In this document: positions 21,977 to 38,600 of the stretch, in pieces
How the letters are laid out: every line of letters begins with the position of its first letter
Numbering within the stretch: position 1 is the stretch's first letter
NCBI GenBank assembly: GCA_040218735.1
Contig: JAVJQW010000042.1
Location: 224,001-288,000 of the forward strand
DNA from: Deltaproteobacteria bacterium
Lineage (GTDB): Bacteria > Myxococcota > Kuafuiibacteriia > Kuafuiibacteriales > Kuafuiibacteriaceae
Length of the DNA: 64,000 nt
Direction: 5' to 3'
The notes under the pieces: model-generated
Databases searched by the model: none
Told to the model about the DNA's origin: nothing
What the model saw: only the letters and a program-made list of their open reading frames with translations
Made by a program: the position numbers and the translations under genes

Positions 21977-22828
21977 TCAGTTGCAGGCGGCCTGGGCGCG
22001 CGTGAGTTTGGCCTGGACGTTCTTGCTGTAGGTCGGCGCCTTGGGGAGCACGCTCTGGAGCGTGGCCATCGCTTCTTCGCAGCGCTCGATCTTCCCGAGA
22101 TCGATCGCGTGGTCGAACGCGAGCTGCGGGTTGTCGGGGTGTTTCTTGCGCAGCTTGGCCGAGTAGATCAGCGGCTCGTCGAAGAGCCCGGGGACGCGCA
22201 CCGTGAACGAACGCGCCACGACCATCGCCTCGCTCTGGTAGACGCTCTTGTTTTTCAGCAGCAGCGCCATCGCCTTCTTGCCGCGCTTGCCGTCGCCCCG
22301 CATCCCGAGGAGCGCGCAGGCGGCGCGGACGTGCCAGTCGGCGTGAGTGATCGCGAGGTTGATGAGCGCTTCGGCGTAGAAGTAGCTCGGCGAGCCCTTC
22401 TTCTTTTCGCGTCGTTCCTCGAGGAGCGTCTGCGCGCGACGCGCGGCGCGCATGGCGTCCATCTTCTCCTCCTGCTCGGCGAAGACACGCACGCGACGGA
22501 ACTCGGCCTCCAGCACGAGGTCCGCGAAGCGCAGCTCGCTGCCGTGCTCACGGCCGAACTTCTCCATCGCGTCGAGGTCCGCCTGCATCTCCGCCCAGAG
22601 GTGATCGGCGTCGTCGAACAGCGCGATCTCCATCTCCTTCATCGTTGCGGAGACCCACAGCGCGCAGGCTTGGTCGTCGAGGTCCTTCGACGCCGCGAGC
22701 TCCGCGATGCGTGCTTTGGCTTCGTCGATGTGCGCGGAGTAGACGAGGTTCGCCGTCTTCATGCAGTCGGGGTCGACGTACCAGGCGGCGCTCGGAGCGA
22801 GGAGGGCGAGCGCGACGACCGAGACCAC
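21977..22828 (-). CDS. Secreted TPR-like helical protein
   Basis: Signal peptide MVSVVALALLAPSAA; all-helical sequence, HPDNPQLAFDHA. Confidence 0.55.
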   Translation of the reverse strand: MVSVVALALLAPSAAWYVDPDCMKTANLVYSAHIDEAKARIAELAASKDLDDQACALWVSATMKEMEIALFDDADHLWAEMQADLDAMEKFGREHGSELRFADLVLEAEFRRVRVFAEQEEKMDAMRAARRAQTLLEERREKKKGSPSYFYAEALINLAITHADWHVRAACALLGMRGDGKRGKKAMALLLKNKSVYQSEAMVVARSFTVRVPGLFDEPLIYSAKLRKKHPDNPQLAFDHAIDLGKIERCEEAMATLQSVLPKAPTYSKNVQAKLTRAQAACN

Positions 22829-22903
22829 ACTTCAGCGTAACCCGGAGGCGGGCTCGACGCGAACCGCCTCGCCATCACTTTCGGAACGTGAACATCATGC
22901 GGC

Positions 22904-23749
22904 GTGGTCCGGACGCGGTACTTGGCGCTCACGCTCGTACTCTGTGGATGTGAGGACGGAGCGCTCATCGAGACCGTCGCCCAGCTCGACGCGGCGATTC
23001 ACGAGGCGCGCGTCCGGTCGAGGGTGTTGATGCAGCGGCGGAACGCATTGGCCGCCGCGCCGGGGGCGCCGAAGTCGATCGGCGCGGGCGGCTCCGGGCT
23101 CGTTCGTGCGCGGATCGTCGGGATGGGGAGCTCCGACCACGTGACCGTAGAGGAGCAGCCGGGGCAGCTCTCGATCGTGGTGCGCGGAGAGCGCGGTCGG
23201 CGACAGGCGGCGCAGGCGTTGCTCGCCTACGGCGTGGACGCGCCGCAACTCGAGTTGCAAGCGGTGAAGTTGGAGGAGCCGGCGTGGTCGATGAAGTTGT
23301 CGCTCGCGCGTCCTGCGGACGTGGCGACGGCGACGATTTCGACGACTTCGATTCAGGTCCCCGAGCCTTCGTTCTTCTCGTTCTCCGAGGGGGAGGCGCT
23401 GCATCGCCGTGCGGAGGCGAAGGCGCGCGAGCTGGAGCAGCTGAACAAGATCATCGTGGAGCTGGAGGGTCGCCTCGCTCAGCAGAAGGCTTCGGTGGCG
23501 GCGGCGGTCGATGAAGCGACGATGACGCGCTTCCGCGCGCGCCGGTACTTCGCGATCGCGTTGCTGCCCGACGTGACGAAGGGGCAGCTCACGTTCGCGG
23601 AGGATCGCGCGACGTGGAAGGGCGCGACGAGCTACACGACGCTCGACGAAGCGAAGGCGGCGCTGAGTGGTCGCGGCGAGGTGATCGGGTTTGCGCCCGG
23701 CGAGCGCGGGAGCTTGGAAGCGAAGGTGGGCGCGACCGACTCGCCGTGA
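22904..23749 (+). CDS. Hypothetical lipoprotein
   Basis: Lipobox-like LVLCGC; central coiled coil. Confidence 0.5.
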   Translation: MVRTRYLALTLVLCGCEDGALIETVAQLDAAIHEARVRSRVLMQRRNALAAAPGAPKSIGAGGSGLVRARIVGMGSSDHVTVEEQPGQLSIVVRGERGRRQAAQALLAYGVDAPQLELQAVKLEEPAWSMKLSLARPADVATATISTTSIQVPEPSFFSFSEGEALHRRAEAKARELEQLNKIIVELEGRLAQQKASVAAAVDEATMTRFRARRYFAIALLPDVTKGQLTFAEDRATWKGATSYTTLDEAKAALSGRGEVIGFAPGERGSLEAKVGATDSP

Positions 23750-24520
23750 TCAAGGACGCAGCGACGTCCCGCCGTCGATGATGATCGTCTGCCCCTGAAT
23801 CATGTTCGCGCGGTCCGAAGCCAAGAACGCGATCGTGTCCGCGACGTCCTCCGGCGCGATGTTCCGATCCACCATCGAACGCTGACGACGCTCCTCGAGG
23901 ACCGCCTCCACGCCGGGCAGCGCACGCAGCGAGCCCGTATCGACGACGCCGGCCCTCACGCAGTTCACGTTGATCCCGCGGTGCCCGAGCTCCAGCGCCG
24001 CGTGCCGCGTCATCGACTCGATCGCCGCCTTGCACGCCCCGATCGCGCCATACATGGGGAGCGCGCGCTCCGCGCCCCAGCTCGACACCGTGACCACCTT
24101 CGAACGCTGCCCGTCGTTCGCGCGCGCCTCCAACAGCGGCGCTGCCTTCTGCGTGAGGAGCATGAACGCCCGGACGTTCAGGTGAATGGCGTAATCGAGC
24201 TGGCTGCCGGACGTCTCGAGCAACGGCCTGAAGCCACCGCCCGCCGCGTTCGACACCAGGATGTCGAGCCCGCCGAGCTGATCCGCGACGGCCTCGACGA
24301 GGTTCGTGGTGTCATCCTCTTCGGACAGGTCCGCGCGCACGACCAAGGTCCGGCGCCCCATCGCGAGGATCTCCGCGCCGACCTCCTCCGCGTTGCGTCG
24401 CGCGTTCACGTAGGTGATCGCGACGTCCGCTCCAGCCCGCGCGAGCGCGAGCGCGGCGGCGCGACCGATGCCGCGTGAGCCTCCAGTGACGAGTGCGAGG
24501 CGCCCCGAAAGGTCGATCAC
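23750..24520 (-). CDS. SDR family, FabL-like enoyl-ACP reductase
   Basis: TGGSRGIG, SNAAGGGFRP, Y-x6-K catalytic motif YGAIGACK (enoyl-reductase type rather than YxxxK); GTGA overlap with the PPTase stop. Confidence 0.75.
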   Translation of the reverse strand: MIDLSGRLALVTGGSRGIGRAAALALARAGADVAITYVNARRNAEEVGAEILAMGRRTLVVRADLSEEDDTTNLVEAVADQLGGLDILVSNAAGGGFRPLLETSGSQLDYAIHLNVRAFMLLTQKAAPLLEARANDGQRSKVVTVSSWGAERALPMYGAIGACKAAIESMTRHAALELGHRGINVNCVRAGVVDTGSLRALPGVEAVLEERRQRSMVDRNIAPEDVADTIAFLASDRANMIQGQTIIIDGGTSLRP

Positions 24521-25128
24521 GCTGCGCTCCCGACGCGCGCCCAGCACATCGTTCGCCCGCGGTGCACGATCGATCCAACCTCGCGTCGCAAGACGGTCGG
24601 GACCTCGAGATCCGAGAAGCTACGCCTGAACCCCACGCCGAGGTACTTCGCATAGGCTTCCTTCTCGCACCACAACGTCGTCGCGCTCAGATCACGATCC
24701 GCCGCGGCCTCGATGTGGCGCCGCTCGTCACGTGTGAACGCCAACGACAGGAAGCTCTCGTCGCGAGGCTCCACCACCTCGGCGTCTACGCCGACCTGCG
24801 CCTCGGACCACGTCGCCATCGCCAGGTCCGCGGAGTGGGAGATCGACAAACACCCCACCGGCCGCGCCCCGATCCACGCGACGGGCCGCCCCGACGTCGG
24901 ACCCTCCGCCTCCGCCCGGATCTCGAGCTGCGTGAACGACAAACCGGTGTGCCGCTGGAGGGCACGCTTCGCAGCCATGCGCCCCGCGAGCCAGTCACGT
25001 CGGCGCTTCAGGTAACGGAGCGCCGCGAAGTCCGCGGCCTCTCGCGCCGTCAACGCCGACACCAACCGCTCACGCGCGGCCCAGACCTCGTCGATCGACA
25101 ACGCGATGATGTCGTTGGGGAGCTTCAT
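24517..25128 (-). CDS. 4'-phosphopantetheinyl transferase
   Basis: WLAGRMAAK, LSISHS, VGVDAEVVE, LWCEKEAYAK; ATGA overlap with the PKS stop. Confidence 0.9.
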   Translation of the reverse strand: MKLPNDIIALSIDEVWAARERLVSALTAREAADFAALRYLKRRRDWLAGRMAAKRALQRHTGLSFTQLEIRAEAEGPTSGRPVAWIGARPVGCLSISHSADLAMATWSEAQVGVDAEVVEPRDESFLSLAFTRDERRHIEAAADRDLSATTLWCEKEAYAKYLGVGFRRSFSDLEVPTVLRREVGSIVHRGRTMCWARVGSAA

Positions 25129-28100
25129 GTCGTCGGCACCACCTGCGCGCGATAACGTCGTACCGCGACGAGCGGCCCGTGCGCCGACATCACCTCGAAG
25201 TCGGCGACCAGCGCATCGTCCGTGACCTCCACGAAACGCACCGCGAGACGAACCCGCTCCCCCGCCGCCTCGAGCACGCGTTTACTCACGTCCACACGAC
25301 CGAACCCCGCGGGCAACGCGACCACGCCGTGCAGGATGCGCCCGAGCATCCCGACCGCCTGGAGGCACCCGTCGAGTAGCGCCGCGGGGAGCTGCCATCG
25401 TCCGGCGTCGGAGCCCGGAACGAGCGAGGTCGGCGCGGGCACGATCAGCTGCGCGACGCCACCGCCGTCCCCGGCGGACACGCCTTCCAGGCACCGGAAC
25501 ACCGGACCGTGGAAGATCATTCGCGAGCCGGGCGTGCGGTCGATGCTCTTGGGGTACGGATAGACGATCGTCTCACCTTCGGCGGCGACGTCGAGCGACG
25601 CGACGGGGGCCTGCGAGGGGACCCGCCGTCCGCGCACGAACACCCGCGCGGGCTCCAACACGACGCCGTCCTGCTTGCGCACCGTCGAGGCGATCGACAA
25701 CGCGTCGCCCTCCCTTCGCGCGAGCACCGTAACGGCGCCGTCTTCGTCGACCTTGAGCGGCCGCTCGATCTGCACGTCGGCGAGCGACCAGTGCTCACCC
25801 GGATCGAGGTTCGACAGCTCGGACATGAGCTCCAGGCTCACCACCGCCGGGACGATCGGCGTCGCGCCCATGCGGTGCTGATCGAGGAATGGCTCCGTCG
25901 CGTCGAGCGTGCGTTCGATCGTCGCGCCGTCCGCGTCGGCGGTGACGAGGTGATCGATCATCGGGCTCGCCGCCGCGCGGCGCGCGCGCTCCAACCATTT
26001 CGGACGATCGCTCTCCGCCACGAGGAGTCGATCCATGTCCAACGCGTCGAGGCGCTCGCAGATCGTGATCTCCGACTCCGGGAGCCCCGCCCACAGCTCG
26101 CGCACGAGGTGATTCGCACCCTCCGCCGGCGTCATGAACGCCTGCCCCGCCTTCTCCAGGAACGCCTTCGCCGACGAGCGCGCCGCGAGGCCGACCTCGG
26201 AGAACGCCGCCCAGGCGATCGCGGTGACGTGGACGTCGTGCGTCGCACGGTACGCGGAGAGCAACCGCGCCTCGGCTTCGTTTGCGATGGCGTAGTCGGT
26301 CTGTCCGTGGCCACCGAAGCGGCCCGACACCGAAGAGAACCCGACGACGTGGGTCAGCGGATCGTCCTTGGTCAGCGCGAGCAGATGGACGAGGCCGTCG
26401 ACCTTGCCGCCGAGCGTGCGCTCGAACAGCGCGTCGGTCTTCTTGTCGAACGGCTTGGCGACCTCGACGCCCGCGCCGTGCAGCACGCCCTCGATCGGCC
26501 CGCGCACGCGTGTCTTCGTGAGCACCGCGGCGAGCGCTTCGCGGTCGGCGATGTCCACCGCGTAGTAGACGACGCTCGAGCCGCGCTCGGCGATCTGTCG
26601 GAGCGTCGCGTCGATCTCCAGCGACTTGTCGATCGACTCACACCGCTGCTTCCACGCGATCGGCGAGAAGCCGCCCTCCGACTTCATCGCCTGCAAGATG
26701 TCTTGCTTCAGCTTGTCGAGCCCCGCGTCGTCGAGCGCGCGCCACTGCGCGAGCGTCGCCTCCTCCGGGAGGGGGTGGCGCCCGAGCAGGACGAGCCGCG
26801 GTTGGTAGAGCTCCGCGAGGCGGATCGCCATCTTCGCGGTCACGCCACGCGCGCCGCCGGTCACGATCCACGTCGCGGGCAGGCGGTCGGGTGAAGCCGC
26901 CGGCTCCGCGCGCCGCTCGGCCATCTTCAGCACGAGGCGCTTGCCGCGCAGCAGACCCACCTCCAGCGGACCGCCGGGCGCATCGAGCTCGGCGATCAAC
27001 GCCTCCGCGACCTGCGACGGAGACTCCGAAGGGCTCGCGTCGAGGGCCTGTACGGAGAGCCCGTCGAATTCGCGGCGCACGGACTTCAGGAGGCCGAGGA
27101 GCCCCCCGCCGTCGCCGGTGCCCTGAGCGGCGTTGTCGAACCCGAGTGCGCCGCCGAGGAACGTCACCCCGAACACGGTGCCGTCCTTACGGTGCGGCGC
27201 CCACGCGCGGAGGAGCTCGAACGGAGCGAACAGCGATCGAGCGCGTCGTGTCGACCAGGTCGCGGCGTCGACCGCCCACGCGGCCTTGGCTTCGACCGTC
27301 GAGACGATCCCGATCGCGTCGACCGTGTCGATGCCCAACGTATCGAGTCGTCGCGTCGCGCGCGTCGCGTCGGCCTCGACGTGGACGTCGCTGCCTCGCG
27401 CCGTCATCGCCGCGGCGATCGCCTGGACGTGCGCGCCTTCGCCCACGAGCAGCAGTCGCTTCGGCGTGAAGGTTCGCGACGCCGAGCGCCGCGGCGCATC
27501 GACGACCCGCACGACCTGACGCCGCATCACCTCGGTGAGCTCGACGACGCCCGCGCCGCTCTCGGTGAGGTCCTCGACGCGTTCGATCCGCGACGGTGTC
27601 CGCCGCGTCCCGTACTCGACCGTGAGGAAGTCGACGTCTTCCGTAGAACCCGGCGGGAGCACGCGGTCCGTGACGTGGAGTCGACGCGAGCCCGGCTCGA
27701 CGACGAGGCTCATCACGTTGTCCACGCGTCGCACAGTGTTCATCGTCGCGTGCACGACTTCGCGCCCGCGGCCGTGATCGTGACGGTCACGCAGGAGCTG
27801 CTTCGCGCGGTCCACCGTCATCGGGCCCGGCTCCGAGACGAGCTCACACGCGCGCTTCTCGCGGAGCGCGGAGTGCGCAGGGACTTCACCGCCGTCGGCC
27901 GGTGCGAGGCGAGAGTGGTTGGTGCTGGTGAGCTCGCGCCCGACCTCCTCGCGCGCGACGATCGTGTCGTCGTCGTACTCGATGTAGTGGGCGCGGTCGG
28001 TGTCGGCGTCCGAGACGAGGACGCTCCAGCGCCCCGCCTTGTGTGCGGACTCGACCATCTGCACCGCCTGCTCGATGGAGGAAGCCCCCTCCAGGATCTG

Positions 28101-31100
28101 CTTCACGAGCATCGGGTGCGGTCGCCCGGTCGGGAGCGCCGTGGCCTCGGGGCCGTCGAGGAGGGTGGTACTCGTGACGGTGAGGCCCGAGTCGGTCACG
28201 CCGTTGAGGCCGGCGATCTGACCGACGAGCGAGAAGTACACCGTGGTGCGGTTCGGCATCGGGCCGTCGGTGCGACGCCGAATCTGCGCGACGCGCGGGT
28301 GGACGCCGTCGAGGTGCAACAGCAGCGGGGAGTCTTCGTTGATGCAGTGGAGCATCGCGCCGTCGTTCTCGCGGGCGAGGCGCACGGTCTGCGTGCAGCC
28401 GCTCGTGAGCGACGGGAACAGCGCGGCGTCGAGGTTGTACGCGAGCAACACGAGCTCGTGCACGCCGGTCGCCTCCGCGACGCCGCGCAGCTCGTCGAGG
28501 CTGTCTTCGTCGAACACGCCGTAGAGGCGCTTCGTCGTCTCGGGGAGGGCGAGGAGCGCGAGGCCTTCGCGGCCGACGAACGTCTGGTAGCGATCGAGCA
28601 CCTCGAGGATCGGGTCACGCATCGCTTCGCCGTGCTGTCGCCCGATCTCGCGCGCGGTGCCGTCGAAGCGAAGCACCGTCACCGGGCGCGCGGTGTTCGC
28701 GGGGACGGTCGTACGCGGCGCGGGGATCTCGATACCGATGGCGTCGAGCGCTCCGACCGGCGCGGGTTTGGCGAGACCGGTGAACGCCGGCTTCGCGAGG
28801 CCAACGACGGCGTCGGCGTCGATCGGGATCGCCGGCGCCAGATCACGTTGGCGGAGATCGAGCGTCGGGACCTGCGTCCCCGCCGCCGAGCGTTCGTCCT
28901 CGTGCGCGGGCTTCGCGGGCGCGGGGCGGCTGGAGGGGGTGCCGTCCGAAGCCGGGATCGACTTCGCGGGGGCCCCCTCGGGCGGCGTGTTCGTCGGCGC
29001 GCTCGCGACGGTCGGCGCCTTCGGTGCGGCCGGCTTCTGCGTGCGCTTCTTGCTCAGGTCGACCATCGGCACCGCGACGGCGGGCTTCGCGGGGGCGGGC
29101 TCGGCGCGCTGCGTGGTGAGCTGCTTGTCGACGTACTCGAGCACGTGCCCGAGCGTCGGGAAGTCACGGAGCGAGAGCTTCTCGTCGGCGCGCAGGTCGT
29201 ACCTGTCGCGCACCTTGCCGAGCACTTGCGCCTGCTTGACCGTGTCGATGCCGAGGTCGGCTTCGAGGTCCGCGTCCATCTCGATGATGTCCGGCGGGTA
29301 GCCGGACTGCTCGCAGATCGCGTCGAGGAGGAACGCCTTCACTTCGTCGCGGCTCGGGAGATCCGACGCGACCGCGGGGGTCGGGAGCGGCTCGGCCGCG
29401 GGCGGCTCGGCGGCTGGGGGCTCGACTTCGGCCGTGGGGGCCTCGGCGCGTGGCGCCGCCGCCGCGGCCGGCTCGGCGCGCGGTGAAGACACCGCGGGCG
29501 CTTCGCTCACGGCCTCGGGCGTCGGCAGCTGCGAGTACCGCTTCTCCGTCGCCCACATGCTCTCGAGGAACGTGATGAGGCTCGGTCGCGTCTTCTCCCA
29601 GAACGCGTCGAAGCCGGGCTCCGACAGAAGACGCTCCGCCTCGGCTCCACTCAGTAGATCGATTCGGCTGCCGTCCCCCGCGTTCTCGGCGGCGCGTTCC
29701 AGCGTCGTGATCATCGCCGACACGCGCGCCAACGACCACGCGCCCGCGCGGTTCTTGTCGTCCACCGAGGTCACGTACGCACGGTCGCCCGCGATGCGTT
29801 TGGTCAGGCCCGTCAGCACGGCGCGAGGGCCGCACTCGACGAACGCGTCCACGCCGTCGTCGAGGAGCAGCTCGACCTGGCGCACGAAGCGCACCGGCTT
29901 GGTCAGCTGCGCGACGAGCGAGGCGCGGATCGTCTCGGGGTCCGACTCGAACTTCTGCGACACACTCGACAGGTAGGGCACCGACGGCGCCGCGAGCGGG
30001 ATCTTCGCGAGCCCCTCTGCGAGCGCGTCCGCGGCGGCGCCCATGTACGTGGAGTGGAACGGACCGGGCACGTCGAGCGCCACGTGTTCGAACGAAGCCG
30101 CGGCGAACGCGGTCGCCGCCTTCGCCATGCCGTCCAGCGTCCCCGCGACGACGATCTGATCCGGCGCGTTGACGTTCGCGACCTCGGCGCCTTCGACCGT
30201 CGCCAGGATCCGCTCGACGTCTTCGAGCGACGCCGTCACCGACGCCATCGACCCCTCGACCACGTTCCGCTCGATCGCGCGCGCGCGCATCGAGGTCGCC
30301 TCCAGCGCGTCCTCCAGCGACCACGCGCCCGCCGCGACCAGCGCGGCGTAGTCACCGAAGCTGTGCCCCGTGACGACGTCCGGCGCGAGCCCGAGGGTGC
30401 GCACCGCTTCGAACGCCATCACGTCGGCGGTGAGCACGAGCGCCTGCACCGCGAACAGCTCGAACGGCACCGGCGCTCCGTCGCGGAACACCGGCGACAA
30501 CCGCGCGCGGCGGTGTGCGTCGAGCCACTCGTCCACGCGCGTGACGATCGCGTCGACCTCCGGGAGCGCTGCGGCGAACGCACCCATCATCCCGGCGTAC
30601 TGCGAGCCCTGTCCGGAGAAGAGCATCGCGAGCTTCGGCCCGCGCGAACGACCGCGCGTCACGAACACGCCCTGCTTCTCGAGGAAGTCACGCGTCGCCG
30701 ACGTCAACCCGGCTTTCAACGCCGCGCCGATCGCACGCCGAAGATCCGCGTCGTCCGTCGCGGCGATCCCGAGCGTCACCGCGCCCTGCCCGACGTGTTC
30801 GGACCACGTCGCCGGGTCGATCGAACCGAGCCGCGCGAGGACCGCGTCCTCCGTGGCGTCGCTCAACGTGTGCACGTGCATCGTCTTCCTCTCGGGCTCG
30901 TCGCCCGCCGTACCGGGGTGCTCGACGATCGCGTGGTAGTTCACGCCCGCCAGCCCCATGCTCGAAACCGCAGCGACGCGCGCGCCCTCCCAGGGCGTGG
31001 CGTGGGCGTTCACGACGAGCGCGTCGCCGAAGTCGTGGTCCGGGTGCGGGGCCTCGAACCCGCGCGTCGGAGGGATGGTCTCCAGGTCGAGCGCCATCGC

Positions 31101-33725
31101 CGTCTTGATCATCGCGATGACCCCCGCCGCGCCCTGCGTGTGGCCGACGTTGCTCTTCACGCTGCCGAGCGTGACGGGGCGGTCGCGTTCGATGCCTTCG
31201 AGGTAGGTCGCGCGCACCGCGGCGACCTCGGTCGCGTCACCGAGCGGCGTCGCGCCACCGTGGCACTCGACGAACTGCACACGCGACGGATCGAAGTCCC
31301 CCTGCGCGATCGCACGCCGCATCGCGCGCGCGAGGCCCTTCGGGCTCGGCTTGTAGAGGCTCTTCTTCTCGCCGTCGCTCGACGAGCCGATGCCGCGCAC
31401 GATCGCGCGGATCGGATCGCCGTCGCGCTCGGCGTCTTCGAGGCGCTTGAGCACGCAGACGCCGGCGCCTTCGCCGGGGATGAAGCCGTCGGCGCGGTGG
31501 TCGAACGGTCGCGGCACGCTGCTGCGCGACAGCGAGTAGAACTGGCAGTACGCCTCGTAGCGCTGCACGCGCATCGCGCGGTCGCCGCCGCCGTGGATCG
31601 CGATGTCGACGACGCCGGATCGCAGCAGCTCACACGCCGCCTCCATCGAAGCGAGCGACGAAGCGCAGGCCGCGTCGAGCGCGTACGTCGGGCCCATGAA
31701 GTCGAGGGTCTTCGCGGTGCGGGAGGCGAGGGTGCTGGAGGAGAAGCTCCCGCTGGAGTCTTCGTTGATCGACGGGTAACGCTTCCGCAGCGCGACGAGG
31801 ATCTCTTCGATGAGCGCGTCGTCGCCGGTGCGGCCGAGGGCGTCGGCGGTGACGTCCGCGAGCTCCTGCGATCGAATCGCGAGGGCGAGGGCGAGGGCGT
31901 AGTCGCTCCCGAACACCGTGCCGACGGTGGTCGAGACGCGCTCGCGGTCGATCTTGGTGAGGTCGATCTTCGCGTCGTCGAACGCGTCGAGCGTCGACTC
32001 GAGCAACATGAATTGCAGCGGGTCGTTGCGCTCCACGAGCTTCGGCGGGACGCGGTAGCGGCGCCAGTCGGCCTCGAAGTCGGTCACGAACGCACCGCGC
32101 TTGGTGTACGTGCGGTACGGCGCGCGGTCGCCGGGTGCGAAGTAGACGTTGCTGTCCCAGCGGTCCGCCGGGACGTCCTGCGAGAGATCTTCGCCGGTGC
32201 AGAGCTTCTCGAAGAACGCGGGGGCGCTGTCCGCGCCGGGGAAGCGGCCGCCGACGCCGACGATCGCGATGTCGCAGCGCTTTGCCTTGCGGCCGGACTC
32301 GGAGAGCGCGGGGGTGGCGGCGGTGACGCGCGACGGCGCCTCCTCGACGACGACGTGGTAGTTGAGCCCGCCGATCCCGAACGCGTTGACGCCGACACGT
32401 CGCACGCCGTCGGTCTCGAACGGGCGCGGCGCGGTGACGACCTCCACGGCGAGCTCGTTCCAGGGGATCTGATCGCTTGGGTTCTTGAAGTTGCCGGTGG
32501 GCGGGATCGTCGCGTTCTCGAGCGCGAGGATCGCCTTCACGAGCCCGGCGGCGCCCGCGGCTTCGCGGCAGTGGCCGATGTTGCCCTTCACCGAGCCGAC
32601 CGGCATCGGCTTGCCGCCGCGCGCTTCGGCGTAGACCTCGTGGAGGGATTCGAGCTCGGTGCGGTCGCCGAGGGGGGTGCTGGTGGCGTGGCCTTCGATC
32701 AGATCCACGGTGCCGGGATCGATCTGCCCCATCGCGTACGCGCGGCGCATCGCGAGGACCTGGCCTTCGCGGCGCGGCGCCCAGAGGGCCTTGCCCTTGC
32801 CGTCGCAGCTGCCGCCGACGCCGCGGATGATCGCGCGGATCTTGTTGCCGTCACGGAGCGCGTCTTCGAGGCGGCGGAGCATCACGAGGCCGAAGCCGTC
32901 GGAGCTGATGAAGCCGTCGGCGCGTTGGTCGAAGGGGAAGCTGCCGTTCGGCGAGAGCGCGCGCGATTGCGCGAACATGATCACCGACAGCTCTTGCGAG
33001 TAACTCGCGCCGCCGACGATCGCGGCGTCGAGGCGGTTGTCGAGGAGGGCGCGGACACCGATGTCGAGGGCGGCGAAGGACGAGGCACACGCGGCGTCGA
33101 CGACCATGTGGCGGCCGGTGAGGCCGAAGCTGTTGGCGACGAGCCCGGCGAGCGCGGAGGTCATGGCGCCGACCGCGCCGTCCTCGGTGCGGCGCGGGTA
33201 GTGGGTATGGACGCGTTCGACGATCTCGGCCTTGAGGTCGGCGAGGCGGTCGAGGCCGAGCGCGGCGAGCGTGGGCGCGTCGTCGAGCGCTTGCACCATC
33301 TGTTCGACCGCGGTCGAAAACGCGATGTTGCTGGAGCGCTCGGAGCCGCGTGCGTGGCCGACGATGACGCCGACGTTGGCGCCGGTGAGCGCGAAGGGGT
33401 CGTAGCCGGCGTCTTCGAGCGTGGCGCGGGCGCACTCGAGGGCCCACAGGTGGGCGACGTCGGTGTTCTCGACGACCTTCGGCGGCATGCGGAACGCGGT
33501 GCTGTCGAAGGGGTGTTCGTCGACCAGGCCGCCGAGATCGCAGTAGCTCTTCCCGTACGCGCCGATCTCGGGATCGTAGTAACGCGCTCGGTCGAAGCGT
33601 TCGGCCGGCATCGGCGCGATCGCGTAGACGTCGTTCAGGACGTTGTCCCAGTACGCGTGTTCGTCGGCGGCGCCCGGAAATCGGCACGCCATCCCGACCA
33701 CGGCGATCGCGGTTTCGTCGGCCAA
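25125..33725 (-). CDS. Type I (iterative/Pfa-like) polyketide synthase: KS-KS-AT-ACP-C45 acyltransferase-KR-DH
   Basis: KS1 DAACASS/GHATST/GHCREAAG; KS2 DAACASS/CHGGAT/GHTQGAAG; AT GHSFG and GPFHS; ACP DLGIDTVK; C45-like GRQHG...ELRGVAE...SGCT...HCINED; KR TGGARGV...HGAG...DYAIAN; DH LDQHRMGATPIVP...LLDGCLQ. TTG start with GGAG RBS. Confidence 0.9.
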   Translation of the reverse strand: MADETAIAVVGMACRFPGAADEHAYWDNVLNDVYAIAPMPAERFDRARYYDPEIGAYGKSYCDLGGLVDEHPFDSTAFRMPPKVVENTDVAHLWALECARATLEDAGYDPFALTGANVGVIVGHARGSERSSNIAFSTAVEQMVQALDDAPTLAALGLDRLADLKAEIVERVHTHYPRRTEDGAVGAMTSALAGLVANSFGLTGRHMVVDAACASSFAALDIGVRALLDNRLDAAIVGGASYSQELSVIMFAQSRALSPNGSFPFDQRADGFISSDGFGLVMLRRLEDALRDGNKIRAIIRGVGGSCDGKGKALWAPRREGQVLAMRRAYAMGQIDPGTVDLIEGHATSTPLGDRTELESLHEVYAEARGGKPMPVGSVKGNIGHCREAAGAAGLVKAILALENATIPPTGNFKNPSDQIPWNELAVEVVTAPRPFETDGVRRVGVNAFGIGGLNYHVVVEEAPSRVTAATPALSESGRKAKRCDIAIVGVGGRFPGADSAPAFFEKLCTGEDLSQDVPADRWDSNVYFAPGDRAPYRTYTKRGAFVTDFEADWRRYRVPPKLVERNDPLQFMLLESTLDAFDDAKIDLTKIDRERVSTTVGTVFGSDYALALALAIRSQELADVTADALGRTGDDALIEEILVALRKRYPSINEDSSGSFSSSTLASRTAKTLDFMGPTYALDAACASSLASMEAACELLRSGVVDIAIHGGGDRAMRVQRYEAYCQFYSLSRSSVPRPFDHRADGFIPGEGAGVCVLKRLEDAERDGDPIRAIVRGIGSSSDGEKKSLYKPSPKGLARAMRRAIAQGDFDPSRVQFVECHGGATPLGDATEVAAVRATYLEGIERDRPVTLGSVKSNVGHTQGAAGVIAMIKTAMALDLETIPPTRGFEAPHPDHDFGDALVVNAHATPWEGARVAAVSSMGLAGVNYHAIVEHPGTAGDEPERKTMHVHTLSDATEDAVLARLGSIDPATWSEHVGQGAVTLGIAATDDADLRRAIGAALKAGLTSATRDFLEKQGVFVTRGRSRGPKLAMLFSGQGSQYAGMMGAFAAALPEVDAIVTRVDEWLDAHRRARLSPVFRDGAPVPFELFAVQALVLTADVMAFEAVRTLGLAPDVVTGHSFGDYAALVAAGAWSLEDALEATSMRARAIERNVVEGSMASVTASLEDVERILATVEGAEVANVNAPDQIVVAGTLDGMAKAATAFAAASFEHVALDVPGPFHSTYMGAAADALAEGLAKIPLAAPSVPYLSSVSQKFESDPETIRASLVAQLTKPVRFVRQVELLLDDGVDAFVECGPRAVLTGLTKRIAGDRAYVTSVDDKNRAGAWSLARVSAMITTLERAAENAGDGSRIDLLSGAEAERLLSEPGFDAFWEKTRPSLITFLESMWATEKRYSQLPTPEAVSEAPAVSSPRAEPAAAAAPRAEAPTAEVEPPAAEPPAAEPLPTPAVASDLPSRDEVKAFLLDAICEQSGYPPDIIEMDADLEADLGIDTVKQAQVLGKVRDRYDLRADEKLSLRDFPTLGHVLEYVDKQLTTQRAEPAPAKPAVAVPMVDLSKKRTQKPAAPKAPTVASAPTNTPPEGAPAKSIPASDGTPSSRPAPAKPAHEDERSAAGTQVPTLDLRQRDLAPAIPIDADAVVGLAKPAFTGLAKPAPVGALDAIGIEIPAPRTTVPANTARPVTVLRFDGTAREIGRQHGEAMRDPILEVLDRYQTFVGREGLALLALPETTKRLYGVFDEDSLDELRGVAEATGVHELVLLAYNLDAALFPSLTSGCTQTVRLARENDGAMLHCINEDSPLLLHLDGVHPRVAQIRRRTDGPMPNRTTVYFSLVGQIAGLNGVTDSGLTVTSTTLLDGPEATALPTGRPHPMLVKQILEGASSIEQAVQMVESAHKAGRWSVLVSDADTDRAHYIEYDDDTIVAREEVGRELTSTNHSRLAPADGGEVPAHSALREKRACELVSEPGPMTVDRAKQLLRDRHDHGRGREVVHATMNTVRRVDNVMSLVVEPGSRRLHVTDRVLPPGSTEDVDFLTVEYGTRRTPSRIERVEDLTESGAGVVELTEVMRRQVVRVVDAPRRSASRTFTPKRLLLVGEGAHVQAIAAAMTARGSDVHVEADATRATRRLDTLGIDTVDAIGIVSTVEAKAAWAVDAATWSTRRARSLFAPFELLRAWAPHRKDGTVFGVTFLGGALGFDNAAQGTGDGGGLLGLLKSVRREFDGLSVQALDASPSESPSQVAEALIAELDAPGGPLEVGLLRGKRLVLKMAERRAEPAASPDRLPATWIVTGGARGVTAKMAIRLAELYQPRLVLLGRHPLPEEATLAQWRALDDAGLDKLKQDILQAMKSEGGFSPIAWKQRCESIDKSLEIDATLRQIAERGSSVVYYAVDIADREALAAVLTKTRVRGPIEGVLHGAGVEVAKPFDKKTDALFERTLGGKVDGLVHLLALTKDDPLTHVVGFSSVSGRFGGHGQTDYAIANEAEARLLSAYRATHDVHVTAIAWAAFSEVGLAARSSAKAFLEKAGQAFMTPAEGANHLVRELWAGLPESEITICERLDALDMDRLLVAESDRPKWLERARRAAASPMIDHLVTADADGATIERTLDATEPFLDQHRMGATPIVPAVVSLELMSELSNLDPGEHWSLADVQIERPLKVDEDGAVTVLARREGDALSIASTVRKQDGVVLEPARVFVRGRRVPSQAPVASLDVAAEGETIVYPYPKSIDRTPGSRMIFHGPVFRCLEGVSAGDGGGVAQLIVPAPTSLVPGSDAGRWQLPAALLDGCLQAVGMLGRILHGVVALPAGFGRVDVSKRVLEAAGERVRLAVRFVEVTDDALVADFEVMSAHGPLVAVRRYRAQVVPTT

Positions 33726-33908
33726 GGACTCCAGGGTCGAATCCCCCCAAATCTGAGTAAATACGACGACCTGCGTGGGGGATACGCCTGTTCAGACCGG
33801 GGTGGCTGGTCAAGGCCTCCGATCGATGCTACTTACCCGTCCCTTCGTCGGGACGACTGCAGACGGTCACCGACGATGATCCGAAGACCCCACGAGAGGT
33901 ACACGTAC

Positions 33909-34313
33909 ATGGCAACCCGTACCCGGAAGAGCAAGGAAGAGAAGCCGCTCTCCAAAAAGGAGCTCGAGCAGTTCAAGAAGCGGCTCGAAGACCTCCGCGA
34001 CGAAGTGAGCGCCCGAATCCGGGAGCGTGCGAGCACCGCGCGCGTCGACGAAAACGACCTCATCGAAGAGATGGACCAGGCCAATCGCGCCACCGAGGAG
34101 GCCTTCAACATGCGCCTGCTCGACAAGGAGGTGAAGCTCCTCCGCGAGATCCAGGTCGCCATCGCGAAGTTCGACGAAGGCACCTACGGCCTGTGTGAAG
34201 GCACCGAGGAGCAGATCGAGCGCCGGCGCCTGGAGGCCCGTCCTTGGACGCGTTACTCCGTCGCCTACAAGGAGCAGCTCGAACGCGAGAAGAAGGGCCG
34301 CGCCGCGCGCTGA
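33909..34313 (+). CDS. dksA: DksA/TraR family transcription factor
   Basis: Coiled coil with EEMDQA tip, then GTYGLCEGTEEQIERRRLEARPWTRYSV. Confidence 0.8.
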   Translation: MATRTRKSKEEKPLSKKELEQFKKRLEDLRDEVSARIRERASTARVDENDLIEEMDQANRATEEAFNMRLLDKEVKLLREIQVAIAKFDEGTYGLCEGTEEQIERRRLEARPWTRYSVAYKEQLEREKKGRAAR

Positions 34314-34430
34314 GCGAGGGCCCCGAGCCCCATACTCTCCATGCGACCCCGTCGCAGCCTCGTGCGGGCGATCCCATCGCAGCCGCCGAGTTTCATCCCC
34401 GACCGTCGTAGGCTGGGGCCCCGACGGTCG

Positions 34431-35627
34431 GTGAAGGTGCGCGCGAACGCACTTCGGCGGTGGGTCCTCCCTTCGGCCTACGTACTTGCCTGGATGTTCG
34501 CACCCACCGCGGCGTGGGCGCAGGCCTTCGAGCCCGCCTACGGCGTCGAGCTGAGCCAGGGGACGTTGGTCGCGCCGTCCCGGATCGTCGGTATGGGGGG
34601 CGCCTTCGTGAGCATCGCGGAGGGGGCGGGCGCGTACGAGATCAACCCGGCGGCGGCGGCGATCCGGTACCCGCACAACAAGGACGAGCTGTGGGACTGG
34701 GACTTCGCGCTCGAGGGCATCGTGTCGCCGCGCGACTCGGCGGACTTCGAGAACAGCCGTCGTGAGGCGTCGCGCGTCGACAACCTCGCGGCGGCGTACG
34801 CGTCGCTCGGTTTCGTCGCGGAGCACTTCGGGATGGGCGTGGCGATCTCGGCGTCGTCGCTGCAGGTGAAAACGGAGGGGCAAGATCCCATCACGCTCAC
34901 CGGCGGCACGCTGTCGTTGGTCGGCGGCTACAACCTGATGCAGGGCCAGTTGGTGTTGGGGCTCGGCGTGGCGTTGGGTTCCACGAACGCGGATCGTGCG
35001 GCGCAGCTCGAGTTCTTCGGGATCGGCTTGGTCGCCGGCGGCGTCGCGCAGCCGAAGGGGCAGCCGTACCGGTTCGGCTTCACGCTGAAGACGCGCACCA
35101 CGATGAGCGCGCAGGAGGGGACGGTGCCGGGGATGCGCACGGCCGACCTGCTGGTGCCGACGTCGTTCGTCGTGCCCGCGCAGCTCACGGTCGGCATGTC
35201 GTACTCGTTCGGCAGCCGCGCGAACAACGTGACGAAGACGTTCGGCACGCGCGAAGCCGAAAAGGACGACGCGCTCCCCAAGGAACGCGACTTCGTGACC
35301 GTCGCGGCCGACGTCGTCTTCACGGAGGCCCTCGAACGCGTCGCGGGCTTCCAAGCCTGGGCCGACGACGTCCTCCAACCCGCCGGCCAAGCCGTCACGG
35401 TCGGTCTGCATATCGGCGCGGAGAGCGAGATCATCGACAACCGCCTGAAGCTACGCGCGGGCGGTTATTACGAACCGAGCCGCTTCGCGGGCAGCGGCCG
35501 CTTCCACGGAACGACGGGTTTCGACCTGCGGCTGTTCGAGTTGATCTGGGACTGGAAGTTCGCGTTCGCGGGTGACTTCGCGAAACGCTACACGAACCTG
35601 ATCTTCTCGATCGGGTTCTGGCACTGA
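34431..35627 (+). CDS. Outer-membrane beta-barrel protein (FadL/OmpP1-like)
   Basis: Signal peptide ending AAWAQA, SRIVGMGGAFVSIAEG...INPAA hatch motif, LRAGGYYEPS, C-terminal SIGFWH; start approximate. Confidence 0.65.
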   Translation: MKVRANALRRWVLPSAYVLAWMFAPTAAWAQAFEPAYGVELSQGTLVAPSRIVGMGGAFVSIAEGAGAYEINPAAAAIRYPHNKDELWDWDFALEGIVSPRDSADFENSRREASRVDNLAAAYASLGFVAEHFGMGVAISASSLQVKTEGQDPITLTGGTLSLVGGYNLMQGQLVLGLGVALGSTNADRAAQLEFFGIGLVAGGVAQPKGQPYRFGFTLKTRTTMSAQEGTVPGMRTADLLVPTSFVVPAQLTVGMSYSFGSRANNVTKTFGTREAEKDDALPKERDFVTVAADVVFTEALERVAGFQAWADDVLQPAGQAVTVGLHIGAESEIIDNRLKLRAGGYYEPSRFAGSGRFHGTTGFDLRLFELIWDWKFAFAGDFAKRYTNLIFSIGFWH

Positions 35628-35683
35628 CTCCGACCCCGCGGCCTGACCTCCGCTCGCGATCACGCTACTCTTGCGCCGCTGGC

Positions 35684-38600
35684 ATGGCGCGAATCTTCGT
35701 ATCGTACAGCCACCAGGATCGGGCCTGGAAATCGAGAGTGGTGAGTTACATCGACGCCGCGGATCTCGACACGTGGGACGACGATGACATCGAAGTTGGT
35801 GCCGACTGGTTCGGTCGGATTCGCGGAGCAATCGGAGCCGCTGACGCGGCCGTTCTCCTTATCTCTCCCGACTTCCTTCGGTCGAAGTTTGTCCGCGAGC
35901 ACGAGATGCCGCGACTGCTTGGGGAGCGCTCGAATCGCGGTATGAAGATCTTTCCGATCATCGTTCGGCCGTCTCCGCTCGAACCGCACGTCTGGCTGCG
36001 CGAGATGCAGGTTCGACCCCGTGACCTCGAACCCTTAAGCGCCATGACCGACGTCGATGCCGACAAGGTACTTGCCGAGTTTGCGAGTGAGGTACAGAGT
36101 CTCGTCCGTACCAACGTCTCGATGGCCGCGGTCTCCGTCGACGATGTCGAACCCTGGTGGCCAGATGGTGTTCCGCTTCCGCGCCGCCCCTACCCGCTGC
36201 TGGAGCCGTATCGTAGCCCAGAGCTCTACGCCGGCCGGACGCACGAGATCGACGCCTTCGCCTCAGCCGTTCGTGAACCCAAGTTAGTGACTCCGCTGTA
36301 CGGCTCATCCGGCGTTGGAAAGAGCTCATTCATAAACTGTGGTTTGGCACCACGCCTACGCGGTGATGCCGACGACCGCCAGAGTGCGGTTGCGGTGGAG
36401 CGAACGCCGGGGGCGCCGGGGCTATTGAATCGACTCCTCGTTGGCGTGCTGCGAACGCCTCTCGAACCCAAGGTCGGCGATCGCGATGTTGTTCGCTTCC
36501 TGTCAACGGTCGAACGTCTGCGCCAAAAGACTGGATATCCGCCGGTTTTCATTCTCGATCAGTTCGAGGACGCCTTCAAAGGAGACGAGAGTGCTCTTGC
36601 GCGGATTGGCCCCGTCTTGGGGCATACGGCCGTCCAGGGAGATCAACAGTTTCAGTTCGTCTGCCGGTGGGTTCTCTCGTATCGCGAGGAGTTTCATGGA
36701 GCTGTGGAGCAGTGGCTTGCCGACTATCTTCGTCCCGCGCGGATGTCCGAGGTTCTGGGGATCGACAACCTTCCCACGTCGCTTCTCACCCCGGAGTTCT
36801 ACAATCGGACCGTGGCGGGTTTGCGGCCCATGGCGACGCCGCTTCCCCCGCTGGCCGGTGACGCCGCGATGGAGTGGGTCACGGACCGATTCGTCGAGGC
36901 GATTGGCCGGCCCCTCGAGGCGCGACGGGAAGATGGGACCATGGCTTTCCACCTTAAGATTGCCGGCGATGGCCTGCGCAGGCTCGCAGCAGCGTTTGCG
37001 CGTGAGCGTGTCGCTCATCCACGGGCTCCACTTACAACGGAGCTCCAGGTGGTGCTCGATGCGTTGCTGCAAGGTGTGAGTTGGACGGACGACAGGACCG
37101 TGCAGCTGACGTCGGATCTCGACGCGTGCATCGAGGGCGCACTCGAACGTCACCTGGAGCGAAAGCTCCGCGAGGCCTTTCAGGCTGATGATCACCCTCA
37201 ACAAATGCGTACCCGCGGGCTGTTGGTCCTTCTGCGTCTGGCGGACGAGGCGGGCGCGTCCGCGCCGGTTCCGGTCGAGGAACTCGAGAGTTATCTCGGT
37301 AGCGAAGGAGCCGCGGTTCTGGACGGGCTCGCGAGGTCTGATGTGCGGCTGATCATGAAGCAGCGCCACGATCTCACGGCGGTTTATGCCCTTCCGCATG
37401 ACCGGCTCGCGAGTGTTGTGCGTCGGGTCGGCCAAGAGCCGCACACACGTGCGCGGTACGGGCTTGATGATGAGCTTCTTCGGACCCAGGAGCTCGTCGC
37501 GTCGTTGGTGGCTCTGCACCGCAAGGCCCGTGATCTACCTGAAGAAGAGGAGAAGCTACGTCATCAGGCATGTGACCTTAGCGCCGATGTGCGGAAATCC
37601 GTCGAACGCTACGCGCCCTTTCTCGTTGTCGGAGAAGACGCTTGTCTTTGGTGGGCCGACGTGAAGGCGTTCCAGATCCGGGCGCTGGCGCGCGCCCTTC
37701 GGAATCGGAGGATCAAGGTCCTCGTTGGTCTCGTGGTGACCGTCGTAGCTATCTCAGGGATCGCAATCCTCTACGCTTCGGTCTATCACGGCTTTCGCCG
37801 CGCAATCTGGGACGCAAATAGCTACCAAAGCGCGGTGAAAGCACGTGAGAGATTTCGCGTATTGCCGCTTGCTGGGGAACAGGCAGATTCGAGCTTCCGT
37901 GACTATCTTCTTGGCAAGGCTGCCAGGATCGCGTTGACGGGTGACACGCTCGCTGCTGGGCTCGTCCGACAAGAGGCCCTCAAATTGGCCCCTGATGAAG
38001 TCGTAGAACGTCGCGACAATCCGTGGCTCATTCACTTGCGCGAGCGGCCGATCGCTGTACGAATGTCTCCACACGGCGTCTTCGTGGCCATTAGACTTCG
38101 GAGTGGCTTGGAAGTCTGGGAGGTGGCGTCAGAAGGGGTTCGACACTATGCTCACTACCCTTCTTCGCGTTCGATCTCGTTGTTTGCAGTCGATGATGCT
38201 GGCCGCCTAGTGCTGCCGGGATCGAAGCCTAATACGGTACGTTATCGCGAACACGTAGTTCCCATTCCGGAATGGGCTGTCGATATCTGGGTAGACTGGA
38301 GGTCCGAGGATCGGCTGTGGGTGTCAGAGGATCTCGGGCCGAATCTCTGCCTGAACAGGATAGACATCGTAAGCGGTGCGGAGCTTGAACGCCGGCTCGT
38401 GGGTCGGCGTGCAGCCGAGGCTCGCAAGACAATCGAAGAAAAGGTCAAATTGGCTCGTCTTCCATGCCCTGAGCGATCTGGCGTGGAGTTTGTTGACCTC
38501 GGTGATCAGAGTATAGGCGGTGGATCCGAGAGTGTGTCCGATTCCGGAGTGCTTGATTGTGTTGAACGGGGCTGTGTTCATGCATTAATGCCAAGGTGCC

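Follow-up and report, generated by a model that had tools for sequence, protein, structure and literature searches.

A peptidase C45-type Ntn-hydrolase domain and a threonine-type carrier domain within an iterative polyketide synthase from a Kuafuiibacteriaceae bacterium

The stretch of DNA analyzed here, called the window, comprises 64 kb of a Deltaproteobacteria bacterium assigned to the Kuafuiibacteriaceae (contig JAVJQW010000042.1, positions 224,001 to 288,000; about 68-70% GC) and contains an iterative type I polyketide synthase (PKS) in which a peptidase C45 / N-terminal nucleophile (Ntn) hydrolase domain lies between the acyl carrier protein (ACP) and ketoreductase (KR) domains. By profile, junction, motif and fold this insert is a true C45 member, with a match far beyond chance. 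The list of open reading frames (ORFs) gives three co-directional genes on the minus strand, of 2866, 203 and 265 amino acids (aa), with a G+C content at third codon positions (GC3) of 0.87-0.91 that passes the GC3 filter in all three. They encode the PKS, a phosphopantetheinyl transferase (PPTase) and a short-chain dehydrogenase/reductase (SDR), listed below with the domains of the synthase, which besides those named include ketosynthase (KS), acyltransferase (AT) and dehydratase (DH) domains.

25125..33725, minus strand: iterative type I PKS, KS-KS-AT-ACP-linker-C45-KR-DH, 2866 aa, 305.6 kDa, TTG start (Pfam, NCBIfam)
32301..33725, minus strand: KS1 with Cys213-His-His, residues 1-475 (Pfam match 6-472)
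30906..32288, minus strand: KS2, intact with Cys687, residues 480-940 (Pfam match about 486-935)
29766..30638, minus strand: malonyl-type AT, residues 1030-1320 (PF00698, 129 bits; Pfam 1035-1309)
29106..29363, minus strand: single ACP, residues 1455-1540 (PF00550), with Thr1495 (codon 29241-29243) in the motif EADLGIDTVKQAQV
28689..29105, minus strand: Pro/Ala-rich linker, residues 1541-1679, with a ratio of nonsynonymous to synonymous substitution rates (dN/dS) of 0.58
27606..28688, minus strand: peptidase C45 / Ntn-hydrolase domain, residues 1680-2040 (NF040521, PF03417, AlphaFold2, Foldseek)
codon 28395-28397, minus strand: Cys1777 of the C45 domain, which follows the pro-segment (residues 1680-1776)
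26166..27488, minus strand: KR with its structural subdomain, residues 2080-2520 (PF08659, 110 bits; Pfam 2284-2509)
25128..25973, minus strand: PKS-type DH, residues 2585-2866 (PF21089, PF14765; Pfam PS-DH 2593-2862)
24517..25128, minus strand: Sfp-type 4'-phosphopantetheinyl transferase, 203 aa (PF01648)
23750..24520, minus strand: FabL-like NADPH enoyl-ACP reductase (in trans), 256 aa with the Val10 start; the ORF at full length reaches 24547 (265 aa)

The three genes are joined by short overlaps. The stop of the PKS overlaps the ATG of the PPTase in an ATGA at 25125-25128, and the stop of the PPTase overlaps a GTG at 24520 in a GTGA, provided that the reductase starts at Val10; the alignments of relatives to the reductase start at query residues 5-10, that is, around Val10. 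Both the order of the domains and the two overlaps had been read from the letters of the DNA in an earlier note (the original prediction), which also took the insert for a C45 protein of Ntn fold with its junction at Cys1777; the order stands in Pfam and NCBIfam scans, the second overlap stands with the Val10 start, and the evidence on the insert, given next, bears out the rest.

The model NF040521 (C45_proenzyme) matches residues 1689-2016 of the PKS with 130.9 bits against a cut-off of 85, spanning model positions 2-313 of 313, and PF03417 (AAT) matches residues 1833-1983 with 27.8 bits against a cut-off of 23.2. Direct comparison of the C45 region by phmmer with the sequences of the Protein Data Bank (PDB) gave no match, isopenicillin N acyltransferase (IAT) being reached solely by family profile and fold: a profile built from 30 family members finds 2x1c/2x1d at an E-value of 2e-24, followed by acid ceramidase and NAAA. 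The AlphaFold2 model of residues 1680-2040, a check put forward with the original prediction, has an Ntn fold with a mean predicted local distance difference test score (pLDDT) of 91.4 and a predicted template-modeling score (pTM) of 0.91. The top Foldseek matches to this model are 2x1c/2x1d/2x1e (E 9e-19, template-modeling (TM) score 0.74-0.76), that is, IAT; the next ranks go to uncleaved acid ceramidase and NAAA, ahead of further Cys-Ntn hydrolases. Cys1777 (model residue 98) is the first residue of a predicted β strand (98-103). Moreover, the SGCT motif, which holds Gly1776-Cys1777, occurs a single time in the PKS, and N1796-E-D1798 aligns with Q-N-W-D of 2x1c in the profile alignment; the Asp of the N-x-D motif of IAT, about 20 residues past the nucleophile, has a catalytic role in that enzyme.

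An alignment of the domain with 40 full-length-class homologues (41 sequences) has 44 invariant columns. The residues G1776, C1777, N1796, E1797, D1798, R1816, N1936, H1937, S1952, R1955, R2000, D2002 and N2003 are the same in 41/41, the predicted junction thus being intact throughout, and residues of GRQHG (G1695, H1698, G1699), ELRG (E1745, G1748) and LAYNL (N1764, L1765) also fall in invariant columns. In the 33 of the 40 homologues that cover all seven domains, the mean identity of the C45 domain is 54.8%, with 50.9% for AT, 51.0% for KR and 46.6% for DH; also, the dN/dS values against the same-genus relative are 0.24 (alpha part) and 0.27 (beta part) for C45, 0.29 for AT, 0.22 for KR and 0.35-0.58 for the linkers. 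By these values, C45 is under purifying selection and evolves in the manner of a catalytic domain. The genome contains three stand-alone C45 proteins, which give only a 33-bit local match to the C45 domain of the PKS, and none of them adjoins PKS genes.

In a word-seeded search, a C45-containing region turned up in 41 proteins (1576-5016 aa, the one from the window included), whose named sources are metagenome-assembled genomes of Deltaproteobacteria and Myxococcota, Acidobacteria and Planctomycetes; one near-identical member bears the NCBI label 'C45 family autoproteolytic acyltransferase/hydrolase'. A HMMER pass over 1.84 billion representatives gave 416 matches with E<=1e-3, of which 142 have E<=1e-10 and 85 have E<=1e-30. 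Most show, by BLASTP with the domains of the window, the layout KS-KS-AT-ACP(0-5)-C45-KR(-KR)-DH(-DH), and split forms that start at the ACPs or at C45 also exist. Among 401 sampled genomes of the phylum, seven encode the C45 domain within a PKS (E<=1e-100; open frames 2757-2910 aa long). All seven come from the family and order of the window, in which they account for 7 of 20 genomes (6 of 12 genera), a patchy occurrence of the kind that an accessory trait would show. Judged by these sequences, the architecture defines a large family spread over several phyla, with no product known for any member. In the full-text literature searched, no paper describes this layout or reports a PKS with an internal C45 domain; the earlier note, too, did not recognize a characterized pathway.

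The column of the nucleophile was compared in 185 family sequences, 165 of which have a residue there, and 131 of these 165 have Cys. The losses of Cys cluster in tree clades without a fused ACP and none occurs in the clade of the window. The Cys is kept in 36/36 proteins with a Thr-type ACP directly upstream, in 28/33 with a Ser-type ACP upstream and in just 31/49 relatives without an ACP motif within 330 aa, counts that come from non-independent kin and are read as a pattern, with no statistical test. Moreover, in 20 metagenome loci (47-71% GC) retrieved via a different motif than the C45 Cys, the Cys is kept in 20/20 and the whole C45 signature is intact in 18/20.

Among the other domains of the synthase, KS1 has a Cys/His/His set that is invariant in 85/85 aligned relatives. 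KS2 has the Cys-His-His set in the window, and its Cys is kept in 36/80 relatives and lost in 44/80; because only 36/80 keep it, KS2 is regarded as a chain-length-factor-like partner, though one still 'live' in the clade of the window. The AT is FabD-like, with 183.6 bits to TIGR00128 (fabD) in NCBIfam, below the cut-off. As the original prediction held for thioesterases, Pfam and NCBIfam scans of the PKS and its neighbors detected neither a thioesterase nor a release reductase domain. A short natural form, KS-KS-ACP-C45 without AT, KR and DH, is found in one locus (L061, 6266-12422) and two proteins (P0017, P0046). This form stops right past C45, with the PPTase and FabL-like genes coming next, and C45 would therefore occupy the place of a thioesterase.

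The PPTase matches PF01648 with 51.7 bits against a cut-off of 25, and its N-terminal 4PPT_N half matches PF17837 with 26.3 bits, just below the cut-off of 27. It is the best of four ACPS-family matches in the genome, and, given that there are four, it is an extra, dedicated copy. The SDR scores 271.8 bits with NF005975 (FabL), below the equivalog cut-off of 328, and is still the best match of the genome to the FabL model; its best solved relative is FabL from Bacillus subtilis (3oic, 184.5 bits, the next match having 122.9 bits), and the motif Y166-x6-K173 is present. A PfaD-type reductase was not found in the genome, where the best pfaD-family match has 26.9 bits against a cut-off of 449. 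Thus, the synthase has its own PPTase and a probable FabL-type enoyl reductase in trans, as had been proposed. The trio is also kept in relatives, a point that the original prediction had marked for checking: in six genome loci of relatives, a PPTase comes after the PKS in 6/6 (in one case 1.8 kb off, behind an S15 peptidase gene) and a FabL-like gene is downstream in 5/6. Among the 18 of the 20 metagenome loci that extend past the synthase, a FabL-like gene is downstream in 16/18 (absent in L042 and L048) and a PPTase in 8/18. The remaining neighbors of the PKS-PPTase-reductase trio have no family match and are common only to the same-genus relative, so the conserved unit is the PKS, the PPTase and the reductase.

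Additional genes accompany the synthase in some metagenome loci. A GH3 amido-synthetase lies directly after the reductase in 4 of 12 Pfam-scanned loci (L045, L047, L049 and L055), and in L045 and L047 an O-methyltransferase and a Rieske oxygenase are also present. A FAAL gene is directly upstream of the PKS in L056 and L058, together with a separate four-ACP protein in L056, and a fatty-acyl reductase gene is near the synthase in L048, L056 and L060.

The single carrier domain matches PF00550 over residues 1465-1532 with 24.7 bits against a cut-off of 20.8. Its Thr1495 aligns with the phosphopantetheine Ser of the DS motif in the PigH ACP, the Streptomyces coelicolor ACP and AcpM, and the Ser at the start of helix II, which is the usual cofactor site of carrier domains, is not present in the ACP of the PKS, Thr standing in its place. 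This is the most conserved domain of the PKS, with a mean identity of 70.6% and a dN/dS of 0.094. The carrier motifs of the family comprise 53 of the Thr type and 73 of the Ser type (EADLGIDSIKKAQ), with one of each in P0039. The Thr type marks the clade of the window, where it is fixed, and is also present in L036-L044, L061 and L070-L075. In addition, shorter proteins gave 855 matches, and among the best 120 of them 114 have Thr-type motifs only (410 Thr vs 19 Ser), in arrays of 4-6, although the search words used in this case favor the Thr type.

At the DNA level, the pattern G[IV]DTVKQA is found in 64/401 genomes of the phylum, usually in tandem at a spacing of 300-340 bp, and the reversed-pattern control gave 0. 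Six such loci encode KS-AT-ACP(Thr)x3-5-KR-DH synthases without C45, each with a PPTase 32-37% identical to that of the window, and a giant acetyl-CoA carboxylase is present in most of them. The uncharacterized 'Type R' synthases of Shulse & Allen (PMC3098273), a paper that mentions neither serine nor threonine, are matched by these six loci; in the 'Type R'-like synthases, 3-6 ACPs stand in an array and all are of the Thr type. Neither residue is named in PMC6731297, consulted on the characterized myxobacterial PUFA synthases. Synthases whose sole carriers are of the Thr type could not work unless the Thr bears the cofactor. No paper on threonine-linked phosphopantetheine was found in the literature searched, which omits most subscription journals, so that this result serves as a lead only.

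Regarding the genes around these carriers, a giant single-chain acetyl-CoA carboxylase of 1439-1850 aa adjoins the Thr-type array synthases of L070, L073 and L075, a carboxyltransferase is found in L074, and in L073 and L075 an acyl-CoA dehydrogenase also adjoins the synthase. The Glu of the V-G-x-D-x-E motif is missing from the PPTases of L055-L059, which belong to clades with Ser-type carriers or no fused ACP, and is kept in all PPTases beside Thr-type carriers (window, L036-L044, L061, L070-L074). In the PPTase tree, the Ser-associated enzymes form their own clade and the Thr-associated ones do not form one clean clade, one row (L075) being mistranslated.

Upstream of the PKS, the following gene is transcribed divergently from it:

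33909..34313, plus strand: DksA-like gene, divergent from the PKS (PF01258, 28.6 bits; TIGR02420, 77 bits, below cut-off)

Its product lacks the four zinc Cys, and a matching stretch adjoins the start of the PKS in 6/6 loci of relatives; within this bacterial family, the divergent DksA-like gene accompanies the conserved trio. The gene may regulate the PKS operon. An antisense ORF upstream of the PKS (33867-35411) was rejected, as its tblastn matches are the reverse frame of the plus-strand DksA-like gene, and scanning 22800-34400 for promoters and terminators returned 0 promoter-like and 4 terminator-like sites, with no excess over shuffles. Beyond the DksA-like gene, the stretch 34341-39745 (plus strand) contains a 428-aa gene of no known family and a 1353-aa TIR-nSTAND1 protein (PADLOC ThsB-like TIR, 44 bits), with 58-62% GC against 68-70% around it. 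In relatives, a cytochrome c7 gene is next to the DksA-like gene, and for this reason 34341-39745 looks like an inserted defense island. Two further lipid-type synthases occur in the same genome, at C67:132000-148000 (L062) and C59:318000-334000 (L063); these loci hold a FAAL, a desaturase and a KS-AT-KR-DH-aminotransferase fusion, and an AT-KS-KR protein beside an ACP-enoyl-reductase fusion.

Compared with known systems, the C45 domain is closest to IAT (PenDE) from Penicillium chrysogenum, a C45 enzyme (2x1c, 2x1d, 2x1e) with the same fold, the same Gly-Cys-Thr junction and the N-x-D motif. However, IAT (about 357 aa) stands alone and acts on acyl-CoA and a β-lactam amine, whereas the C45 domain described here, 16-18% identical to it, is built into a 2866-aa synthase, with the ACP before it and the KR after it, and its likely substrate is predicted to be acyl-S-ACP. 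Acid ceramidase and NAAA (5u81, 5u84, 6dxw) are the second-best structural match, with the Cys-Ntn fold and TM 0.69-0.72; they are also self-cleaving and bind long fatty acyl chains, but are eukaryotic lysosomal amidases with 12-14% identity, outside any synthase. The reductase and FabL from B. subtilis (3oic/3oid), its best solved relative, both have Y-x6-K; nevertheless, the SDR remains below the FabL equivalog cut-off, and its partner is a PKS, not a type II fatty acid synthesis system.

A functional parallel comes from Tri14 of the triacsin pathway. Tri14 is listed as a homologue of the 'Peptidase C45' AzsT of the azaserine pathway (PMC10445470), and Tri14 without its N-terminal segment hydrolyzes lauroyl-S-ACP and does not hydrolyze hexanoyl-S-ACP, for which the role of thioesterase in triacsin synthesis was proposed (bioRxiv 10.1101/2021.05.12.443849). 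Tri14 and AzsT resemble the case reported here in being C45 proteins of a polyketide-type pathway without a classical thioesterase, but they are discrete proteins of ~28 kDa that work with free-standing ACPs in a type II-like system. On the side of the synthase, PfaA and the 'secondary lipid synthases' presented in PMC3098273 have a KS-AT-ACP-KR-DH core and an associated PPTase gene in common with the PKS. The best whole-protein model for the PKS is indeed TIGR02813 (PfaA), with 908.9 bits, below the cut-off of 1010.1. However, the PKS differs from PfaA systems in its extra KS, its one ACP instead of a tandem array, its C45 insert and its FabL-type reductase, with no PfaD found. Its domains suggest that it would work like a PfaA-type iterative lipid synthase, but it fails PfaA membership. 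The word 'peptidase' is absent from Shulse & Allen 2011 (PMC3098273).

Taken together, these data are consistent with a self-contained iterative PKS of the fatty-acid (PfaA-like) type, in which the adjacent PPTase would prime the single carrier domain, by inference on Thr1495, the AT would load malonyl units and KS1, with KS2 as its partner, would elongate the chain. The KR, the DH and the separate FabL-like reductase would then fully reduce each unit, and a reduced fatty acyl chain is therefore expected on the ACP, probably long and saturated or sparsely unsaturated. Ntn hydrolases require the free α-amino group of their nucleophile, so that catalysis by the C45 domain would imply cleavage of the Gly1776|Cys1777 bond. 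If the in-line domain is live, it would cut this bond itself, as its relatives do, converting the 306 kDa chain into a KS-KS-AT-ACP-alpha chain of 188.3 kDa and a beta-KR-DH chain of 117.2 kDa (calculated masses), which would remain joined via the C45 fold. The new N-terminal Cys could accept the finished chain from the neighboring ACP as a thioester and off-load it most likely to water, giving a free acid, or possibly to CoA. Because the locus has no thioesterase and C45 comes directly after the ACP, the domain may do the job of the missing thioesterase. Also, GH3 enzymes adenylate free carboxylic acids, and the GH3 amido-synthetase found after the reductase in four relatives would fit a free-acid product, since it needs the free acid. 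The data show the set of domains, the fold, a catalytic signature that is intact and conserved, purifying selection and the conserved linkage of the genes; that the bond is cut, that acyl-ACP is the substrate, what the acceptor and the product are, and that Thr carries the cofactor, we infer, the argument for self-cleavage being the family chemistry plus the conserved junction. We give about an even chance to self-cleavage of C45 with release of the acyl chain by its Cys, hydrolysis being more likely than direct formation of an amide or ester.

Several observations weigh against this proposal. To our knowledge, there is no tested precedent for an Ntn domain that cleaves inside a 2866-aa synthase, and in 185 proteins and 26 loci no gene is naturally divided at Gly|Cys. 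Moreover, 34 of the 165 family members with a residue in the nucleophile column have no Cys there (Gly, Ser, Ala, Leu and others instead), with N-D-R-N-H-S-R-R-D mostly kept; the fold thus persists without the nucleophile in some lineages, where some nucleophile-independent role must exist. The Cys is also kept despite a nearby fatty-acyl reductase (L048, L056, L060) or FAAL (L056, L058), so that C45 cannot be just the release step wherever it occurs; its role may be more general than terminal release. Regarding the carrier, E. coli ACP with the S36T substitution 'cannot be post-translationally modified' (PMC3340395), and the pathway, with Thr in place of Ser, therefore hinges on a putative attachment of the cofactor to Thr.

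Other roles for the domain have to be considered. The exposed Cys could transfer the chain directly to an amine or alcohol, giving an N-acyl or O-acyl lipid with no free-acid stage, which is the amide or ester release of the original prediction. The closest solved relative, IAT, is an acyl-CoA:amine acyltransferase, the next-closest folds, acid ceramidase and NAAA, act on fatty-acid amides, and the locus has no separate ligase. Nonetheless, the trio is not accompanied by any conserved gene for making or binding an acceptor, the GH3 amido-synthetase of the four relatives would be redundant if C45 had already made an amide, and the sole tested C45 enzyme on acyl-ACP, Tri14, is a hydrolase. This part of the original prediction thus finds no support at the locus, which has no acceptor-forming gene, Tri14 and GH3 both favoring hydrolysis, and direct transfer is considered unlikely.

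On the other hand, C45 could lack catalysis altogether and serve as a scaffold or docking module that separates ACP from KR, with release left to a housekeeping thioesterase or acyltransferase encoded elsewhere; the 34 members without Cys, which keep the domain and most of the other conserved residues, would be explained in this way. However, Gly-Cys and the signature are invariant in the 41 aligned proteins, the Cys is always kept behind a Thr-type ACP and its losses cluster where no ACP is fused upstream. In addition, the constraint on C45 equals that on the catalytic domains, and a scaffold leaves a strictly kept nucleophile at the start of a strand unexplained, which makes this role improbable for the PKS of the window. 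The domain could also serve as a starter transacylase, passing a chain from acyl-CoA to Cys1777 and then to the ACP or KS, like a starter-unit:ACP transacylase. The first half-reaction of IAT takes the acyl group from acyl-CoA to Cys, as this role demands, and the FAAL-bearing relatives belong to a group where the Cys is often lost; but L056 and L058 keep the Cys with a FAAL directly upstream. Moreover, C45 comes after the ACP and is at the very C-terminus in the short form (L061, P0017, P0046), the precedent of Tri14 is one of hydrolytic release, and a starter role would leave the locus without a release function. A loading role is therefore regarded as very unlikely.

Self-cleavage of the C45 domain followed by release through its Cys, more likely by hydrolysis, remains the reading that we prefer for the PKS of the window. 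The broader proposal, in which the synthase would split itself, release its chain through the Cys and also bear phosphopantetheine on Thr, installed by the dedicated PPTase, with the Thr linkage general to its clade and to the 'Type R' synthases, is tentative and somewhat doubtful.

Finally, it is at chain release that the form in which the cell receives the product of a polyketide or fatty-acid synthase is decided, and the solutions known for this step are thioesterases, reductases, condensation-type domains and discrete acyltransferases. If the mechanism proposed here is true, a Cys-Ntn hydrolase that is in-line and self-cleaving would add to these solutions, and no synthase activated by splitting itself would have been known before. 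Moreover, the product of one member would annotate hundreds of gene clusters. The textbook rule is that phosphopantetheine sits on serine, and carrier domains with Thr for Ser touch this rule; if the Thr does bear the cofactor, threonine-linked phosphopantetheine would be a general and undescribed feature of the clade of the window and of 'Type R' synthases.

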